NCBI GenBank assembly: GCA_943359325.1 | Contig: CALRHD010000001.1 | Location: 6,240 to 70,239, forward strand | From: Candidatus Uhrbacteria bacterium | GTDB lineage: Bacteria; Patescibacteriota; Patescibacteriia; UBA9934 | Length of the DNA: 64,000 nucleotides | Direction of reading: 5' to 3' | Shown: piece by piece, positions 20,971 through 41,599 of the stretch | Position numbering within the stretch: the stretch's first letter is position 1 | How the letters are laid out: each line of letters begins with the position of its first letter | Notes under the pieces: model-generated | The model's input: the letters and a program-made list of their open reading frames with translations, nothing else | What the model was told of the DNA's origin: nothing | Database searches by the model: none | Translations under genes and position numbers: made by a program

Positions 20971-21047
20971 GGGCCTGTGATGGTAATGGTTAACCATAGC
21001 TGCGTTGAGACCAGCAAATACGGGTTCAAATCCCGCCAGGTCCACCA
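20971..21047 (+). tRNA. tRNA, atypical (anticodon loop GUUGAGA; anticodon most likely UGA, Gln-UUG alternative)
   Basis: 77 nt. Acceptor GGGCCTG/CAGGTCC with one G-U pair, T-arm GGGTTCAAATCCCG, CCA encoded. The anticodon stem GCTGC/CCAGC has a C-C mismatch at its loop-proximal pair, and the variable loop is only 5 nt. Confidence 0.6.
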
Positions 21048-33854: not shown

Positions 33855-34322
33855 ATGCGTGGTAAACAAGCCCCCAAACGAGAGATGATTCCCGACTTTA
33901 AGTTCGGGAATGTTGTCGTTACCAAGCTCATTAATTACGTCATGAAGAGCGGCAAGAAAACGGCGGCAGAGCACATTGTGTACGATTGTTTTGATATTAT
34001 TGCTGCGGAGACGAAAGAAAATCCGATGGATGTCTTTGACAACGCACTCAAGAACGTTACGCCGACGGTCGAAGTGAAGAGCAAGCGTGTCGGCGGTGCA
34101 AACTACCAAGTACCGATTCCTGTACGTGGTGAGCGCCGCAACGCATTGGCGTTCCGATGGATTTTGGGCGCAGCACGCGGCAAGAAAGGTCGTCCGATGT
34201 GCGAAAAACTCGCCGAAGAATTGATGGCAGCAGCACGCGGCGAAGGCGAAGCATTCAAAAAGAAGCTCGACGTGCAGCGCATGGCAGACGCCAACCGCGC
34301 ATTCGCACACTTGGCCCGATAA
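33855..34322 (+). CDS. rpsG: 30S ribosomal protein S7
   Basis: 155 aa, ending [17 protein letters not shown]...ANRAFAHLA. Confidence 0.97.
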
Positions 34323-34327
34323 TTTAT

Positions 34328-36415
34328 ATGCAAAGAGACTATCCCCTTGATCACGTTCGCAACATTGGCATCATTGCCCACATTGACGCGGGTAAAACCA
34401 CGACGACAGAGCGCGTGCTTTTTTACACGGGCAAAAAACATAAAATTGGCGAAGTGCACGAAGGCGAGGCGACCATGGACTGGATGGAGCAGGAACAGGA
34501 GCGCGGCATCACCATTACCGCTGCCGCGACGACCTGTTTTTGGAAAGGTCACCGCATTAACATTATCGATACTCCAGGGCACGTCGACTTTACTGTAGAG
34601 GTCGAGCGTTCTCTTCGTGTGCTCGATGGCGGTGTGACGGTGTTCGACGGTGTTGCGGGCGTTGAGCCGCAGTCCGAAACCGTGTGGCACCAAGCCGACA
34701 AGTACGGTGTGCCGCGTATTTGCTACATCAACAAGCTCGATCGTACCGGCGCTGATTTCTACAAAGATCTTGATTCAATCCACAAACGTCTCACCACGCA
34801 GGCATTCCCGATTCAGTTGCCGATTGGTGTGGAGTCAAACTTTTTGGGTATCATCGACCTTTTCACTCGAAAGGCGTTCATGTATCGCGATGACATGGGG
34901 AAGATTGTCGACGAAGTGGAAGTGCCAGAAGAATATAAGGCAAAGACCGAAGAGTACCGCGCAAAGCTCGTCGAAGCGATTGTTGAACACGACGAAGCAC
35001 TCATGGAGCGGTATTTGGGTGGTGAAGATTTGGGTGTCGACGAACTAAAGGCGGCGCTTCGTAAGGGTGTCGTCGCGATGAAAATTTTCCCGGTGTTGTG
35101 TGGGTCGTCTCTCAAAAACAAGGGCGTGCAGCAAATGTTGGATGCGGTCGTGGAGTTTTTGCCGTCGCCGCTCGATGTTCCGCCGATTACGGGTTTTGAT
35201 CCTGACGACGAAGAAAAAGTCACTGCGTGTATTCCGTCTGACACCGCGCCGTTCGCTGCGCTTGCGTTCAAAATTGCCGCAGATCCATTTGTAGGCAAGC
35301 TCGCATTTTTTCGCGTGTATTCTGGTTCGGTCAAAGCAGGGAGTTACATCTTAAATACGGCAACAGGCGAGAAGGAGCGTTTGTCGCGTATTGTGCGTTT
35401 GCACGCAAATTCTCGTGAAGACGTGGAGGAAGTGTTTGCAGGAGAAATTGCTGCTGCTGTCGGTCTTCGTGGCACGATGACCGGCCATACACTTTGTGAT
35501 CCCGACCATCCGATTGTGCTTGAGAACATTACGTTCGCGTTGCCGGTTATTTCGCAAGCACTTGAACCGAAAACAAAAGGTGATCAAGAAAAAATGGGCG
35601 TTGCGCTTCAGAAACTTTCGGAAGAGGATCCGACGTTCCATGTGCGTACCGACACGGACACGCTCCAGACGATTATTTCGGGTATGGGCGAATTGCACCT
35701 CGAAATCATGGTCGACCGCATGAAGCGCGAGTATGGCGTCGAGGCAAACGTCGGAAATCCGCAAGTGAGCTATCGCGAGACGATTCGTGGCAACGCTGAG
35801 GGCGAAGGGAAGTACATCAAACAGTCTGGCGGTCGCGGTCAATATGGCCATTGCTGGTTGCGCGTGGAGCCGTTTGTTGACCCTGAGGGTGAAAACTTTA
35901 CGTTTGAGGACGAGGTGAAGGGCGGCGCGATTCCAAAGGAATTTATTACGCCAATCGAGAAAGGTGCGCGTGAAGCGATGGATCGCGGTATTCTTGCGGG
36001 ATACCCACTCATTAACATCAAAGCGACGGTGTACGACGGCAGCTACCACGACGTCGACAGTAACGAAGCGGCGTTTAAGATGGCGGGCAGCATGGCATTC
36101 CAAGAGGCGTGTCGTAAAGCGAAACCTGTTATTCTCGAGCCGGTCATGAAGGTTGAAGCGGTGACGCCAGAGGACTTTATGGGTACGGTTGTCGGCGACT
36201 TGAATGCGAAGCGCGGACAAATTCAGGAAATGGGCGACCGTGGAACAGTGAAATTCGTTCGCGCCATGGTGCCGCTCGCAGAAATGTTCGGCTACTCGAC
36301 GTCGCTTCGTTCCATGACGCAAGGTCGTGCAAGTTACTCCATGGAATTTGGAGAATACCAGGAAGTGCCGCGCAACATTGCAGAAGAGATTATCAAGAAG
36401 CGCAGCGCGAAATAG
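34328..36415 (+). CDS. fusA: elongation factor G
   Basis: 695 aa from the ATG at 34328 ([29 protein letters not shown]). The track ORF at 34157 is an out-of-context upstream extension that overlaps rpsG. Confidence 0.97.
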
Positions 36416-36428
36416 GTTGGCGCAGAGG

Positions 36429-36470
36429 CGGGGCTTTCGTCGACGAACGACGTGCCCCGTTTTTGTTTTT
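36429..36470 (+). terminator. intrinsic terminator after fusA
   Basis: CGGGGC-[CGTCGACGAACGACG]-GCCCCG hairpin followed by TTTTTGTTTTT. Confidence 0.7.
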
Positions 36471-36497
36471 GACGGTATATTTTTGGGGATGTATAGT
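36469..36497 (+). promoter_or_regulatory. sigma70-like promoter for the TA module
   Basis: TTGACG, then a 17-nt spacer, then TATAGT. It sits about 25 bp upstream of the antitoxin start. Confidence 0.55.
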
Positions 36498-36522
36498 ATA
36501 AGAAGAAATAAGCAAAATTCTT

Positions 36523-36726
36523 ATGGCTTCAACGATCACTATTTCACTGCCCGCAGTCACGATAAAAAAAGTTCGTGCGCAAGTGGCAACGGGGCAGTTT
36601 GCTTCGACGAGTGAATTTTTTCGCGACCTTCTTCGTCATTGGGAGGAGCAGAGTTTGGTAAAACAAATTGGGCGGAATAAAAAAGAAAAACCTATCAAAT
36701 TGACATCATTTCAGGATTGGCAATAA
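36523..36726 (+). CDS. ribbon-helix-helix antitoxin (ParD/CopG-like)
   Basis: 67 aa. An N-terminal beta-strand plus two helices (ISLPAVTIKKVRAQVATGQFASTSEFFRDLLRHWEE). It lies directly upstream of the toxin with a 6-nt gap. Confidence 0.7.
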   Translation: MASTITISLPAVTIKKVRAQVATGQFASTSEFFRDLLRHWEEQSLVKQIGRNKKEKPIKLTSFQDWQ

Positions 36727-36732
36727 GCCAAT

Positions 36733-36990
36733 ATGGAGGTGTATTATTATGCGAGTTTTTTGCGTCAGGTAAAGAAACTTCCAAAGTCAATTCGTGCAGT
36801 GGCTATTGAACGGACGAAGCTTTTTATCAAAAATCCTCACGATCCATCACTAAAACTTCATAAACTGCACGGACAACTCAAAGGCCATTTTGCATTTTGG
36901 GTGGATTTTCGTATAAGAATTATCCTAGAAATAAAATCAGAACGGGCATATTTCCATGCTATCGGTGATCATGGTGTATATAATACATAA
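36733..36990 (+). CDS. ParE/RelE-family toxin
   Basis: 85 aa. It has the RelE/ParE fold pattern and a C-terminal ...FHAIGDHGVY, which is typical of ParE/RelE toxins. Confidence 0.7.
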   Translation: MEVYYYASFLRQVKKLPKSIRAVAIERTKLFIKNPHDPSLKLHKLHGQLKGHFAFWVDFRIRIILEIKSERAYFHAIGDHGVYNT

Positions 36991-37080
36991 CGAAGCTGTT
37001 TTATTGGGCAAAGATTTTAACCATGGTTTTGTCACTCTACGTGAGATGTGTTATGACACCCATGTCACAAGGAGCTCCCC

Positions 37081-37293
37081 ATGTCCGAAGTTATCACGAG
37101 ACTTGAGCGTGCAGAGAATGATTTGTCTCAATTTCGCCGTGCCGCAGCAATCATCGTCCTCTTATCGCCGTTGATCTTCTTCGATCGATTCAGGGCCTGT
37201 CATCGGTGGAATACGTGCAGCTTGGCATTACGCCCGAGGAATATAGTGCCGTGCGAAAATTTGCGACGGGGTCGCCATGACCATTCGCATTAA
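37081..37293 (+). CDS. small ORF with Shine-Dalgarno, possibly frameshifted (continues in +2 frame to TGA 37278-37280)
   Basis: AAGGAG lies 7 nt upstream of the ATG. The frame-A product turns nonsensical after about 35 aa. Frame B reads SIQGLSSVEYVQLGITPEEYSAVRKFATGSP and ends in an ATGA overlap with the next ORF. Confidence 0.25.
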   Translation: MSEVITRLERAENDLSQFRRAAAIIVLLSPLIFFDRFRACHRWNTCSLALRPRNIVPCENLRRGRHDHSH

Positions 37294-37468
37294 CCTTGTT
37301 GAGTGGTTACAAAAGCGTGAACGAGCTTTGCGTCGTGCAATGAAAAAAGCGTACGACGCTCCTGCGTCGCCCGAAGAACAATGGAGCAAAGAACACGCAG
37401 TCGACGTATCGGGAACTCGCGCGCTTCTCAAGAACGCTCTCCGCAAGCTCGGCCGCCATTCGTCGTAG
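37277..37468 (+). CDS. small basic ORF translationally coupled to the preceding ORF
   Basis: 63 aa (MTIRINLVEWLQKRERALRRAMKKAYD...). The ATGA overlap links it to the upstream reading frame. Confidence 0.3.
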   Translation: MTIRINLVEWLQKRERALRRAMKKAYDAPASPEEQWSKEHAVDVSGTRALLKNALRKLGRHSS

Positions 37469-37511
37469 CCCCGCCCGTCATCGATCCCCGATGACCGCGG
37501 GGTGTTTTGTT

Positions 37512-37982
37512 TTACACATTTGTTTTTGCATGCAACCACAGTAGCTCGAACATGGTGCGGAGCGTCACCGACGTATCGCCGCTTGTGACAAGAATGACGG
37601 AATTTTCTTTGCGCGTAGTAATGAACGCGGCTTCATTTTCGAATAGCAAAATACTTGCGGGCAAGACAACGTCGCTTGGGAGGAATCGCGACTCGCGTAA
37701 TTCGTTTTTGTCGCGTGCAACAAACTTGTGTGTTTCACGATTCTCGGGAATGAGCTGACGACTTCGTATGCCGCGTTTAATGCGCTCGGCAATAATGCGC
37801 TGCATGAGGTATCGTTCTTTGACGCCGCTTTCGTATAGCCTTCGCCAAAATTGTTTAAACCCATCGGTGCCCTCATACATTGTGACGCCTGTTTTCTCGT
37901 GCGCAGTGCCGTGGAGCGACGAGAGAAGAGGGAGGATCGCTTCGAATGTCCGTTGGCGTTCCTCAAGTTTGCGCAAAAACAT
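37512..37982 (-). CDS. hypothetical protein
   Basis: 156 aa with an ATG start at 37980-37982 and protein-like composition. Family unknown. Palindrome copy C lies about 70 bp upstream. Confidence 0.45.
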   Translation of the reverse strand: MFLRKLEERQRTFEAILPLLSSLHGTAHEKTGVTMYEGTDGFKQFWRRLYESGVKERYLMQRIIAERIKRGIRSRQLIPENRETHKFVARDKNELRESRFLPSDVVLPASILLFENEAAFITTRKENSVILVTSGDTSVTLRTMFELLWLHAKTNV

Positions 37983-38052
37983 TTCTGGTTGCTCGGCAAC
38001 ATAGTGTGTGCGGCCTTTGTTTTATTCACACGTTGTCCACACTTAGCACTGT

Positions 38053-38086
38053 CAGTGCTTAGTGTTGATAATACGAAAACAAATCG
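38053..38086. repeat. palindrome family copy C (one mismatch)
   Basis: GTCCACACTTAGCACTG-T-CAGTGCTTAGTGTTGA, followed by TAAT. Its left arm is nearly identical to copy D, and its right extension matches copy B. Confidence 0.75.
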
Positions 38087-38128
38087 CCCCGCGGCGAGGA
38101 GAGGCTCGGGCGGAGCGATGGAGCAAGT

Positions 38129-38563
38129 CTATTTTTGCGGATTTCCTTTTGCGAAACCGATGAGTGGTCGGTCGGGTAGGAACACTTCGATCTGCCAACA
38201 CATGGGAAGGCGCTCTTTCGCGAATCGCATGCAACAAGCGAGGATGGCCGCGTTCATATTCGTGATGACGAACATGTCTCGCGTTTCTCGATCGAACAGC
38301 CCAACGACGTGTACGATGAGTTCTTCGCCGTGGCCAATAAGGTACCGGTCGCTCGGCATGCTGACAGTCACATGCTCCCGAGTGAGTTCGAGCTCGGGAA
38401 TGTTGGCAACCGCGCCCTTGATCTTCATGATGAGTTGCTCGAGTTCGTGCTGATGACGGTTGATTATTCGAGGTATGCCGTAGATGACGATGTGAGGCAT
38501 TGAAACTCCGAGGGTGCAGCAACATGTTTGCACCGATCGTCGTCTCTGGCAAGACTTGTTCAT
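38129..38563 (-). CDS. hypothetical protein (possible Pro-1 tautomerase-superfamily fold, speculative)
   Basis: The product probably begins MPHIVIYGIPRI, about 123 aa. There is no firm family assignment. Confidence 0.35.
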   Translation of the reverse strand: MNKSCQRRRSVQTCCCTLGVSMPHIVIYGIPRIINRHQHELEQLIMKIKGAVANIPELELTREHVTVSMPSDRYLIGHGEELIVHVVGLFDRETRDMFVITNMNAAILACCMRFAKERLPMCWQIEVFLPDRPLIGFAKGNPQK

Positions 38564-38601
38564 ATTGACGCGCGAGAATTGTCGCCATAAGATGGCGCCA
38601 T

Positions 38602-38991
38602 ATGGTGAACGATCAATTTGAACGCATCATGCGTTTTGCACAACGGACGGGCGATAGGCTTATTGTCACCGACCCGTCGGGGAACGAGCCAGTTGTTATT
38701 ATGGGGCTCGATGAGTACGAGGCGCTTGTGGAAGGTGCGATGGGACCAGACGGTAAATACCCAATGATGGGTGATATCGACATGGATGATGAGGAAGAAG
38801 ATTTTGTGAGCGAGTACGGTGAAGCGCCAACGCTTGAAATTATTGAGGAGCCTGTCATGGAGTCTCCCGTACAGCCGATTATCGACATTCCTACAGAACC
38901 AGAGAAAACTGTGCCAATAATGCAGAATAAAGCCCCAGAAAAACAAGCCGAAATCAACGAAGAGCAGTTTTACTTGGAACCGCTCGGATAA
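38602..38991 (+). CDS. protein with Phd/YefM-like N-terminal domain and long acidic tail
   Basis: The N-terminus ...DRLIVTDPSGNEPVVIMGLDEYEALVEG resembles the YefM/Phd antitoxin core (..ILITR.G..V.VL.S.EEYESL). The C-terminal 70 aa are highly acidic. There is no toxin gene downstream (tuf follows). Confidence 0.45.
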   Translation: MVNDQFERIMRFAQRTGDRLIVTDPSGNEPVVIMGLDEYEALVEGAMGPDGKYPMMGDIDMDDEEEDFVSEYGEAPTLEIIEEPVMESPVQPIIDIPTEPEKTVPIMQNKAPEKQAEINEEQFYLEPLG

Positions 38992-39073
38992 TCACAATCT
39001 CGCTCTTGCGCAATTTTAGGCCTTTTGTTATAGTCTCGGCACTTCACTTTTTAAGAAACCCTTTAATTCAGCT

Positions 39074-40264
39074 ATGGCAGAAGCTTTTTCCCGCAGTAAG
39101 CCGCACGTCAACGTCGGCACCATCGGTCACGTTGACCACGGTAAGACCACGACAACGGCAGCGCTTTTGGCGGTTGCCGCTGGCATGGGTAACGTCGCTC
39201 AAAAGAAGGGCATCGACGATCTCGATAAGTCGCCTGAATCCAAGGCGCGCGGTATTACGATTTCCACCGCACACTGTGAATACGAGACGGCGAATCGTCA
39301 CTACGCACACGTTGACTGTCCAGGACACGCCGATTACGTGAAAAACATGATCACGGGTGCAGCGCAGATGGACGGCGCAATTCTCGTGGTTTCGGCCGCA
39401 GACGGTCCAATGCCGCAAACTCGCGAGCACATTCTTTTGGCCAAACAGGTCGGTGTTCCGTATATTGTTGTGTACTTGAACAAGGTTGACATGGTCGACG
39501 ACCCAGAACTCATCGATCTCGTCGAACAGGAAGTTCGCGATTTGCTCAAGAAATACGATTTCCCAGGCGATGCTGTTCCGGTGATTCGTGGTTCTTCGGC
39601 AAAGGCGCTTGCAAACTTGACGGACGAAGCAGCTATTAAGCCAATTAAAGATCTTTTGAATGCGCTCGACACATACATCCCAGAGCCAGTGCGCGACCTC
39701 GACAAGCCATTTCTCATGCCAGTCGAAGACGTGTTTTCTATTGAAGGTCGTGGCACAGTTGTGACGGGTCGTATTGAACGCGGTCAAATTAAGATCAACG
39801 ACGAAGTTGAAATCGTTGGTTTGAAGGACACCGCAAAAACAGTTGTCACCGGCATTGAAATGTTCAATAAGTCGCTTGACTCTGGTATGGCAGGCGACAA
39901 CGCAGGTATTCTTATCCGCGGCATCAAGAAGGAAGACGTGCAACGCGGTCAGGTGTTGGCGAAACCAGGTTCGGTGAAGCCACACACAAAGTTTGAAGCA
40001 GAAATCCTCGCACTTACGAAGGAAGAGGGCGGTCGTCACAAGCCATTCTTCAAGGGTTACAAGCCGCAATTCTACATTCGTACAACAGATGTTACCGGTG
40101 AAATCACCTTGCCAGAGGGCACGGAAATGGTTATGCCAGGTGACACCGTGAACTGCGTCGTGACGCTTATTGCGCCTGTCGCACTCGAAGAAAAGATGCG
40201 CTTTGCAATCCGCGAGGGTGGCCGTACCGTTGGTGCAGGCGTTGTGGTAAAAATTACTGAGTAA
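39074..40264 (+). CDS. tuf: elongation factor Tu
   Basis: 396 aa with G-domain motifs [17 protein letters not shown] and NKVD. Confidence 0.98.
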
Positions 40265-40272
40265 TGGGTAGT

Positions 40273-40302
40273 GAGCCACGTCGTTTCAAAACGACGTGGC
40301 TC
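40273..40302 (+). terminator. 13-bp perfect stem-loop after tuf (terminator/attenuator before S10 operon)
   Basis: GAGCCACGTCGTT-TCAA-AACGACGTGGCTC followed by a moderately T-rich tail. Confidence 0.6.
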
Positions 40303-40331
40303 GCCTCGTTTCACATTGTTCTTTCATTGTT

Positions 40332-40670
40332 ATGTCGGATACTAAAAAAACAACCGAAGAAGTCGCAAAGCAGCGCATTCGCATTCGTATCCGTGCCTAC
40401 GATCACAAAATTATCGATAGCGCAACGGAAACGATCATCAAAACCGCGGAGCGTTCGGGCGCGGAGGTCATTGGCCCCGTGCCATTGCCAACGGAACGTC
40501 GACGTTACACCGTGAACCGTGCGACATTCATTGACAAAACGTCTCGCGATCAGTACGAAATGCGCATCCACAAACGTCTTATCGACATTGTGAATCCGAC
40601 GGAACGCACTATCGACAGTCTCATGTCACTGAACCTTCCCGCAGGCGTCGACATCGAAATAAAAATGTAA
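40332..40670 (+). CDS. rpsJ: 30S ribosomal protein S10
   Basis: 112 aa from the ATG at 40332 ([29 protein letters not shown]...). Confidence 0.95.
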
Positions 40671-40674
40671 TTAA

Positions 40675-40950
40675 TCCGCAGGGCTTCCGAGATGCGTTTG
40701 AGCATCTGCCAACGGGCAGACTCGAACATGGCTCGGAGGCTCTGCACTCCCAAATACCGAACCGGAAAGAAAGTTCTCCGCTAGCGAGCGGAGATAACCT
40801 TGCCGCCGCTTCGTGAGGGAGAAAAGGAGAATAGTTTCCATTCCCATTTTAAAGACCGACAGCAAGTTGTGTGTTTGTCCTCGCCACGCGGCGAGGGTTG
40901 CTGAAGGCATGAAGTCGTTATGGCTTCACGCTTTTTCGTTAAAACAAACA
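40675..40950 (+). promoter_or_regulatory. structured 280-nt spacer between rpsJ and rplC ending in terminator-like hairpin
   Basis: It contains multiple perfect hairpins: AGATGC/GCATCT, TGCC-AACG-GGCA, CTCCGCT-AGC-GAGCGGAG and CCTCGCC-ACGC-GGCGAGG. A 10-bp stem GCATGAAGTC...GGCTTCACGC followed by TTTTTCGTT lies about 40 nt before rplC. There is no credible ORF. Confidence 0.35.
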
Positions 40951-40954
40951 TCGT

Positions 40955-41599
40955 TTGCTCCAACGGCATCATGCTATGAAGGTACTTCTTGGAACAAAAA
41001 TTGAAATGGATCAGGTGTTTGCACCAGACGGCGCTTCCGTTCCGGTGACCTGGGTTCAAGCCGATCCGTGCACTGTTATTGGAACGCGCACGAATCAAGC
41101 AGGTGTCGCAGTAGCAATGCTTGGCACAGGTTCACGTCGCCATTTGCCAAAAGCACAAAAGGGCGTTTTTGGAGAGCTTGGTGACTTCCGCACCGTGCGC
41201 GAATTCCCGCTTGGTGAGGGCGAAGTGCTTGAGCGCGGAGCCATTCTCGACGTTACAACGTTCGCGATTGGCGATCTCGTCGACTTGGTCGGCACGGCAA
41301 AGGGTCGTGGTTTCCAAGGTGTCGTAAAGCGTCATGGTTTCCGTGGTCATCCTGCAACACACGGTCACAAGGACCAGTTGCGTAAGTCTGGTTCCATTGG
41401 TGCCGGTGGTGTGCAACGCGTGTTTAAAGGAATGCGCATGGCAGGTCGTATGGGAAACAACCGTGTAACGGTAAAAAACCTCGTCGTCATGGCGATCGAT
41501 ACTGCACAAAACAAAATTGCGCTGAAAGGCGCGGTTCCCGGAGCACGAGGTGGTTTGGTCACGATTCTTGCAACTCAAGGAAATGTATGGCGGACGTAA
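40955..41599 (+). CDS. rplC: 50S ribosomal protein L3
   Basis: Begins LLGTKIEMDQVFAPDG and contains GHKDQLRK. The start may instead be the ATG at about 40976 (MKVLLG). Confidence 0.95.
   Translation: MLQRHHAMKVLLGTKIEMDQVFAPDGASVPVTWVQADPCTVIGTRTNQAGVAVAMLGTGSRRHLPKAQKGVFGELGDFRTVREFPLGEGEVLERGAILDVTTFAIGDLVDLVGTAKGRGFQGVVKRHGFRGHPATHGHKDQLRKSGSIGAGGVQRVFKGMRMAGRMGNNRVTVKNLVVMAIDTAQNKIALKGAVPGARGGLVTILATQGNVWRT

Follow-up and report, generated by a model that had tools for sequence, protein, structure and literature searches.

A conserved structured RNA with a terminator-like hairpin between rpsJ and rplC of Patescibacteria: a candidate ribosomal-protein leader

In E. coli K-12, the ribosomal protein genes rpsJ and rplC are separated by 32 nt. 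In the DNA analyzed here, a 64-kb stretch from a Candidatus Uhrbacteria bacterium (hereafter the window), the same gap spans 305 nt (positions 40671-40975), which raises the question of what the gap encodes. The initial annotation of the window had described a structured spacer at 40671-40954 and suggested that it might be a relocated ribosomal-protein attenuator. The gap is indeed structured and hairpins are found where they had been placed, but it extends 21 nt further, up to position 40975. Judged by open reading frames and Pfam matches, the order of the genes on the plus strand is fusA, tuf, rpsJ, the gap, rplC, rplD, rplW, rplB, rpsS, rplV and rpsC, and the start of rplD overlaps the end of rplC. 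The genes next to the gap and the elements within it are as follows:

34157-36415, plus strand: fusA
39074-40264, plus strand: tuf
40332-40670, plus strand: rpsJ, ribosomal protein S10 (open reading frame; Pfam Ribosomal_S10, 8.8e-36)
40678-40745, plus strand: P1, a long hairpin beginning 8 nt past the rpsJ stop codon (inverted repeat; minimum free energy fold)
40747-40821, plus strand: core domain, a long irregular stem (matches of the covariance models R1 and R2; covariation counts)
40824-40831, plus strand: purine-rich, Shine-Dalgarno-like AAGGAGAA, directly 3' of the core
40860-40903, plus strand: P4, a hairpin adjoining the terminator (inverted repeat)
40907-40940, plus strand: intrinsic-terminator-like hairpin with U-tract (terminator scan; our own hairpin and U-tract finder)
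40941-40975, plus strand: tail from the terminator to the start of rplC, including GCUCCAACGG at 40957-40966
40976-41599, plus strand: rplC, uL3 (open reading frame with ATG at 40976; Pfam Ribosomal_L3)

The predicted fold of the gap is considerably more stable than expected by chance. The minimum free energy of the 311-nt stretch that was folded is -119.4 kcal/mol, compared with -93 +/- 5.9 kcal/mol for dinucleotide shuffles; this corresponds to a gain of about 26 kcal/mol and a z-score of -4.47, and none of 100 shuffles folded as well. A comparable excess was obtained for the minus strand (z -5.35), so the folding energy alone carries no information on the strand.

The outer stem of P1 is formed by 40678-40691 and 40732-40745, comprises 14 bp including two G-U pairs and encloses an inner 5-bp hairpin (40706-40719); no U-tract is present 3' of P1. 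In an alignment of 15 sequences, the P1 helix is kept via many two-sided changes (for instance, CG:6 GC:3 AU:1 UA:1). The core domain is closed by pairing of CUCCC (40747-40751) with GGGAG (40817-40821), which is followed by a helix of CGAA (40758-40761) with UUCG (40810-40813) and by P2 (40763-40769 with 40799-40805), which contains one A-G mismatch. An internal loop, in which AAAGU (40770-40774) faces UAAC (40795-40798), connects P2 to the hairpin P3 (40775-40794), whose stem is a perfect 8-bp helix (40775-40782 with 40787-40794). P4 consists of an outer stem, CAGCAA (40860-40865) with UUGCUG (40898-40903), and an inner hairpin with a perfect 7-bp stem (40879-40885 with 40890-40896). Hairpins are also found at the P4 site of relatives, with differing stems (CCCUAA/UUUUGGG, CCUGA/UCAGG and CCUCG/CGAGG); these were recognized by eye, since the alignment of the 3' half with MAFFT and RNAalifold failed due to varying hairpin lengths. 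P4 is therefore supported by inspection, as are the outer core helices, and covariation was counted for the other helices of the core.

The last hairpin of the gap resembles an intrinsic terminator. Its stem, 40907-40916 with 40922-40931, closes a GUUAU loop and is followed at 40932-40940 by TTTTTCGTT / UUUUUCGUU, which comprises a U-tract (40932-40936) and a conserved CGUU. The hairpin had been reported as a 10-bp stem about 40 nt upstream of rplC; its terminator-like character and the distance of 40 nt to the ATG hold, and the stem has to be amended to 9 bp and one A-C mismatch. Our hairpin and U-tract finder assigns it -11.7 kcal/mol, and a simple terminator scan picks 40910-40928 together with its tail. 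Five terminator-like sites were detected in the surrounding 3.1-kb region, compared with 4.9 expected from shuffled sequence, so the terminator of the window, taken singly, is suggestive only. Its significance comes from the comparison with relatives.

The nearest relatives are genomes assembled from metagenomes, of Candidatus Uhrbacteria and of other Parcubacteria or Patescibacteria; a scan with the S10 protein, using one genome per species, yielded 80 loci. In all 78 related Uhrbacteria/Parcubacteria loci with both genes, rpsJ and rplC are separated by a gap of 98 to 549 nt. When the window is counted together with its 78 relatives, 73 of the 79 gaps contain a hairpin with U-tract at or below -8 kcal/mol, mostly 10-110 nt upstream of rplC. 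With a threshold of -15 kcal/mol, such hairpins are found in 73% of the gaps of the 78 relatives, compared with 13% of downstream and 5% of upstream coding segments of equal length. The base of the terminator stem is conserved (GGCYRGARG...CYUCYRGCUUUU), and the terminator is also supported by covariation among the 15 aligned sequences. The U-tract of some relatives directly adjoins the start codon of rplC; furthermore, a scan for sigma-70-like promoters yielded none in the gap of the window. RNA polymerase therefore has to read through the terminator before it reaches rplC. In this respect, the attenuator-like arrangement that had been proposed for the gap was borne out, and it is kept throughout a large clade.

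Two relatives differ in the distal part of the gap: L016 (3322-3870) and L047 (3349-3895) carry an additional 250-300 nt between the terminator and rplC, possibly due to an insertion or to the gain of a promoter region. A further hairpin, with a perfect G+C-rich stem of 14 bp and a C/U-rich tail, lies right after the tuf stop codon (40270-40302), 30 nt upstream of rpsJ. Most related loci have a comparable strong hairpin in their tuf-rpsJ gap, whose median length is 65 nt. Such a hairpin may stabilize the mRNA, terminate transcription or act as a second attenuator.

The most conserved part of the gap is the internal loop of the core domain. About 36 loci share with the window a core of the form P2 - AAG AAAGAUC [P3 hairpin] GAAAAC CUU - P2', with two further short helices around it; the window has the variant AAAGUUC...GAUAAC. 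In the conserved module, an invariant loop, AAG-AAAGWU / GAWAAC-CUU, is flanked by two covarying helices, and about ten nucleotides are strictly conserved. Class 2, with at least 19 loci, has the form CAAGGAG-(A/U)AAGUU[P3](G/C)AUAAC-CUCCCUG, and the closing pair of P3 covaries in this class (C-G, G-C, U-A). Class 3 (five loci) is characterized by AAUAGGUUC[P3]GAUAACGAUUUGC. Across the classes, the loop occurs as AAAGAU, UAAGUU, AUAGGUU and AAGUG.

Two covariance models were built from these sequences, R1 (97 positions, 16 pairs) and the cross-class model R2 (58 positions, 12 pairs). In the window, R1 matches 40737-40828 (56.8 bits, E 1.4e-09) and R2 matches 40759-40809 (46.9 bits, E 2.1e-08), whereby the E-values of both models are rough according to the tool's own statement. 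R1 finds one match per locus, always in the rpsJ-rplC gap and on the gene strand, and no second match within the 64-kb window. At E<=0.01, R2 recognizes the module in 53 related genome loci and in the window, which makes 54 of the 81 sources that were searched, and all of these matches are located in the gap; six more loci match at E 0.013-0.24, again in the gap, and two weak off-target matches have E-values of 0.3-0.6. The comparison with relatives that had been proposed for the spacer thus reveals conservation of the gap in all 78 loci, of the terminator in most of them and of the module in those recognized by R2.

The helices of the module are supported by covariation. In the R1 alignment of 77 distinct sequences, which was fitted to R1 and leans toward it, 85.9% of the cells are paired compared with 72.7% after shuffling, and 180 two-sided changes were counted compared with 58, a value reached by none of 500 shuffles; sliding the register reduces pairing to 35-61%. 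An independent check with the MAFFT seed alignment gave 85.4% versus 71.3% paired cells and 85 versus 29 two-sided changes, and the cross-class R2 alignment gave 87.8% versus 69.3% and 88 versus 29, respectively. With 50 G-U and 60 A-C pairs, the helices show no wobble excess, so the strand is assigned from context alone. Two facing positions of the internal loop are occupied by (A,A) in 22, (U,U) in 13 and (C,A) in four sequences, and never by (A,U). As far as can be judged from sequence, the missing (A,U) pair suggests selection that keeps the loop open.

Both loop strands are also present in nine further, more distant loci (class 4), where the module appears to be circularly permuted: the order is the 5' strand of P3, (U/C)AAC, a short capped helix, AAGUG and the 3' strand of P3. 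Inspection of the eight distinct sequences by eye revealed compensatory changes in both helices (for example, UCU/AGA, UCC/GGA and CCC/GGG). The apparent recurrence of the loop in permuted form would fit a discrete binding module. A search of metagenomes for the exact class 1 core pattern identified 49 contigs, with many hits in samples from Hainich H41. In each of the 49, the module is followed by rplC in the same orientation, and in 46 it is preceded by rpsJ; the remaining three are cut by the contig end. Thus, position and strand of the module between rpsJ and rplC are fixed in approximately 130 loci. Between the module and the terminator downstream of it, a distance of 70-130 nt is bridged by hairpins that vary among loci, and this variable spacing counts against the attenuator reading presented below.

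The sequence flanking these elements is conserved as well. Relatives of classes 1 and 4 have an RGGAGA / GGAGG element comparable to AAGGAGAA 3' of their core; in the window, no start codon lies 5-10 nt past AAGGAGAA. The tail between terminator and rplC lacks a canonical Shine-Dalgarno sequence in the window; GCUCCAACGG is common to the window and its closest relatives, and class 2 relatives have GCGACCAAUCCGA at the same place, just before rplC. None of the 22 gene starts inspected in the window, those of ribosomal protein genes included, is preceded by a GGAG-type Shine-Dalgarno sequence. The sole conserved AAGGAG-like element nearby is the one inside the leader, at 40824-40831.

With moderate confidence, we favor the reading that the gap encodes a cis-acting leader or attenuator RNA for rplC and the genes that follow, which probably senses a ribosomal protein, uL4 or uL3. 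The leader would be co-transcribed as part of the mRNA and end in the intrinsic terminator just upstream of rplC, and rplC, rplD and the later ribosomal protein genes would be expressed only if transcription coming from tuf and rpsJ continues past this terminator. Since read-through is needed, the element would set, and probably regulate, the output of the cluster relative to EF-Tu and S10; most likely, it throttles the expression of the downstream ribosomal protein genes. The module, with AAAGWU facing GAWAAC in an A-rich loop between two helices, is most likely the site bound by a protein encoded downstream. We infer that its ligand may be uL4, in analogy to the E. coli precedent, or uL3, whose gene is adjacent. 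Protein produced beyond the supply of free rRNA would bind the leader and favor termination, and the bound protein could perhaps block translation of rplC, too.

The initial annotation had considered a terminator or antiterminator between rpsJ and rplC; a conserved antiterminator pairing was not found in the related loci, where the best partner of the 5' strand of the terminator varies from locus to locus. P2 (RAGAAG/CUUCUYG) and the base of the terminator (CUAGAAG/CUUCUGG) resemble each other, and an exchange of strands would be conceivable. Pairing of the 3' strand of P2 with the 5' strand of the terminator yields -7.6 kcal/mol, compared with -6.7 kcal/mol for cross-sequence and -6.3 kcal/mol for shuffled controls; a gain of about 1 kcal/mol leaves such a swap unsupported. 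As no conserved switch was found, a mechanism of the E. coli L4/NusA type is more likely, in which the bound protein would boost pausing and termination while the RNA need not switch to another fold.

Termination could also occur without any regulation. In that case, a partial terminator would lower expression of rplC and the later genes compared with tuf and rpsJ, and the upstream hairpins would only stabilize or process the mRNA. Terminator-like hairpins are the most widespread feature of the gaps, the strong hairpin after tuf in most loci suggests stepwise attenuation, and the fact that no conserved antiterminator was found also speaks for this reading. However, it does not explain why an invariant loop and covarying helices are kept across loci whose S10 proteins are only 64-91% identical, why the loop was apparently re-created in circularly permuted form, or why Watson-Crick pairs are avoided at two facing loop positions. 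An unregulated terminator is therefore considered unlikely.

The organisms in question have small genomes and few regulators, and a conserved loop followed by a terminator is a riboswitch-like layout. The module might thus bind a metabolite or an ion, for instance a nucleotide or an alarmone, and control the ribosomal protein cluster via the terminator. However, no Rfam riboswitch matched even at E-values up to 10, just about ten nucleotides are strictly conserved, the loop variants tolerated between classes are looser than typical ligand pockets, and a conserved alternative pairing was not found. A small-molecule ligand appears improbable on these grounds.

It had further been proposed that a small RNA gene is embedded in the operon. 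Such a trans-acting RNA of about 230 nt would derive from the 3' UTR of rpsJ, be released by termination and perhaps by processing at P1, and act elsewhere. A highly structured element with a terminator at its end would suit this function, and the conserved, purine-rich, single-stranded AAGGAGA could serve as a seed. This proposal has lost ground, because no promoter-like site was detected in the gap by the sigma-70 scan, the element was found on the gene strand in every case and nowhere else, and a fixed position and strand in about 130 loci is the pattern expected of cis elements. Moreover, the terminator lies 10-60 nt from the start of rplC in most loci and abuts the start codon in some. 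A role in trans is thus quite improbable.

S10 is also known as NusE, and the element is located directly downstream of its gene and upstream of a terminator. It could therefore be an antitermination site, either a boxA bound by NusB-S10 or a put- or EAR-like RNA, which renders RNA polymerase resistant to the terminator, so that S10 would promote expression of the downstream genes. A weak UUWACAA motif is present 3' of the core in many class 1 sequences, and boxA sites have been proposed upstream of rpsJ in some gammaproteobacteria (bioRxiv 10.1101/091223). However, the boxA consensus GYTCTTTAANA, used along with two variants, is based on E. coli and may not be that of the host, and its matches were not enriched over shuffled gaps (0 versus 2.3 with one mismatch, 24 versus 20.8 with two), which makes antitermination very improbable.

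It is tempting to speculate that the internal loop imitates rRNA, more precisely the peptidyl-transferase central loop of 23S rRNA flanking helix 74. In E. coli, G2057-AAAGAC-2063 and G2447-AUAAC-2452 are arranged around this helix in the same order as G-AAAG(A/U)U and G-A(A/U)AAC in the element. If this were true, the leader would sense a factor that binds the H74 site, such as the long loop of uL3, a maturation factor or a drug-like small molecule, and thereby couple a signal from this site to transcription of the whole ribosomal protein cluster. In the mature subunit, the long loop of uL3 contacts H73 (bioRxiv 10.1101/2022.03.10.483802). Neither R1 nor R2 matched the E. coli rrn operon. By eye, look-alikes were found at 23S 2057-2063/2447-2452 flanking H74, at 23S H97 and at the 16S 3' end, and the fact that three separate rRNA sites offer a likeness makes each of them unconvincing. 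With a loose descriptor, 85 matches were obtained in E. coli rRNA compared with 51 +/- 14 in shuffled sequence, which illustrates that short A-rich matches are easy to find, and mimicry is not claimed. Since two other rRNA sites match equally well by eye and the (A,U) combination that is present in rRNA never occurs in the leaders, imitation of the H74 region is a long shot.

Several other identities of the gap were considered. A search of the whole window against Rfam 15 at the gathering threshold returned tRNAs only, a search of 40200-41100 with E-values up to 10 returned only miRNA and snoRNA noise, and 20 related loci returned nothing at the gathering threshold. The Rfam search that had been recommended thus yielded no ribosomal protein leader family. 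A kink-turn was rejected on the basis of sequence: the A required for the G-A pair is a U in class 2 and in the window, and the opposite strand has no G-A step. Four small open reading frames in the gap gave fragmentary, frame-switching tblastn matches in the closest relatives and were discarded as coding sequences. A repeat or mobile element was dismissed as well, given that blastn, R1 and R2 detected no other copy in the 64-kb window.

In a public assembly of the same sequence, a gene of 79 amino acids is called on the minus strand at 40671-40910 (1346-1585 in locus L132). This open reading frame has no Pfam match, is not conserved in relatives and is very likely a spurious annotation, which should be corrected as it lies opposite the leader RNA.

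Among known systems, the leader of the E. coli S10 operon, an attenuator that depends on L4 and NusA, is the obvious point of comparison. Both are structured leaders with a terminator tens of nucleotides upstream of the first regulated gene and with adjacent upstream hairpins. The tail of the E. coli leader, CAUUUUCGUUUAU, and that of the element, UUUUUCGUU, which is also found in many class 1 relatives, share UUUUCGUU; the shared UUUUCGUU / CGUU in U-rich tails may be chance. The E. coli leader precedes rpsJ, whereas the element of the Patescibacteria follows rpsJ and precedes rplC. A similarity in sequence or structure was not detectable: neither R1, run with filters off, nor R2 matched the E. 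coli S10 operon, including the 230 nt upstream of rpsJ. Together with the lack of a match to Rfam ribosomal protein leaders, this argues against the initial idea that the element is the S10 leader in a new location. We know of nothing in the E. coli S10 leader that would correspond to the conserved internal-loop module.

Like the Bacillus-type ribosomal protein leaders, which are protein-dependent attenuators, the element combines a structure for protein binding, predicted in this case, with an intrinsic terminator. Bacillus-type leaders, however, typically possess a clear antiterminator/terminator alternative, and no conserved one was found in the element. Conserved RNAs upstream of rplC have been described in other lineages. 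Among 20 ribosomal leader candidates, Eckert and Weinberg (2020, PMC7247131) reported a single one upstream of rplC, which is found in Archaeoglobi, and a 2026 survey described a structure upstream of rplC in cyanobacteria (PMC12873609). Similar to the element, these RNAs are located directly upstream of rplC and were proposed to sense a protein of the operon (PMC7247131, PMC12873609). In Archaeoglobi and cyanobacteria, rplC heads the transcription unit or its regulation; in Patescibacteria, rpsJ lies directly upstream and the element contains a conserved terminator. The lineages differ as well, and the element matches no Rfam model.

Full-text searches of the literature turned up no comparable leader in Patescibacteria. 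The element can be regarded as a new RNA family whose general function is of a known kind; its unusual features are the location after rpsJ inside a classical S10 cluster and the apparent permuted form. The candidate phyla radiation makes up a large share of bacterial diversity; its members are mostly uncultivated and have very small genomes, and, to our knowledge, almost nothing is known about gene regulation in these organisms. Within the Patescibacteria, genetic tools exist for Saccharibacteria (PMC10633639). The element would be a first candidate for ribosomal-protein feedback control in this group, acting at the entrance to the rplC-led cluster. Its small size, clear definition and wide occurrence make it accessible to in vitro tests with recombinant proteins, for which its hosts need not be cultured. 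If upheld, the circular permutation would delimit the minimal binding module with unusual clarity.

Two further observations concern other parts of the window. The genes fusA and tuf are usually neighbors; here, they are separated by an interval of about 2.6 kb with non-ribosomal content (36416-39073). It contains an open reading frame of 129 amino acids (38602-38991) with a weak match to the Phd/YefM antitoxin family, whose score of 23.6 bits lies below the Pfam cut-off of 29.8, and minus-strand open reading frames without Pfam match. Furthermore, the gene for tRNA-Ser(UGA) predicted by ARAGORN at 20971-21047 is just 77 nt long and scores 39.4 bits with Rfam, compared with 61-71 bits for the other five tRNAs. 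Serine tRNAs of bacteria normally have a long variable arm; thus, either the gene or its typing is unusual.
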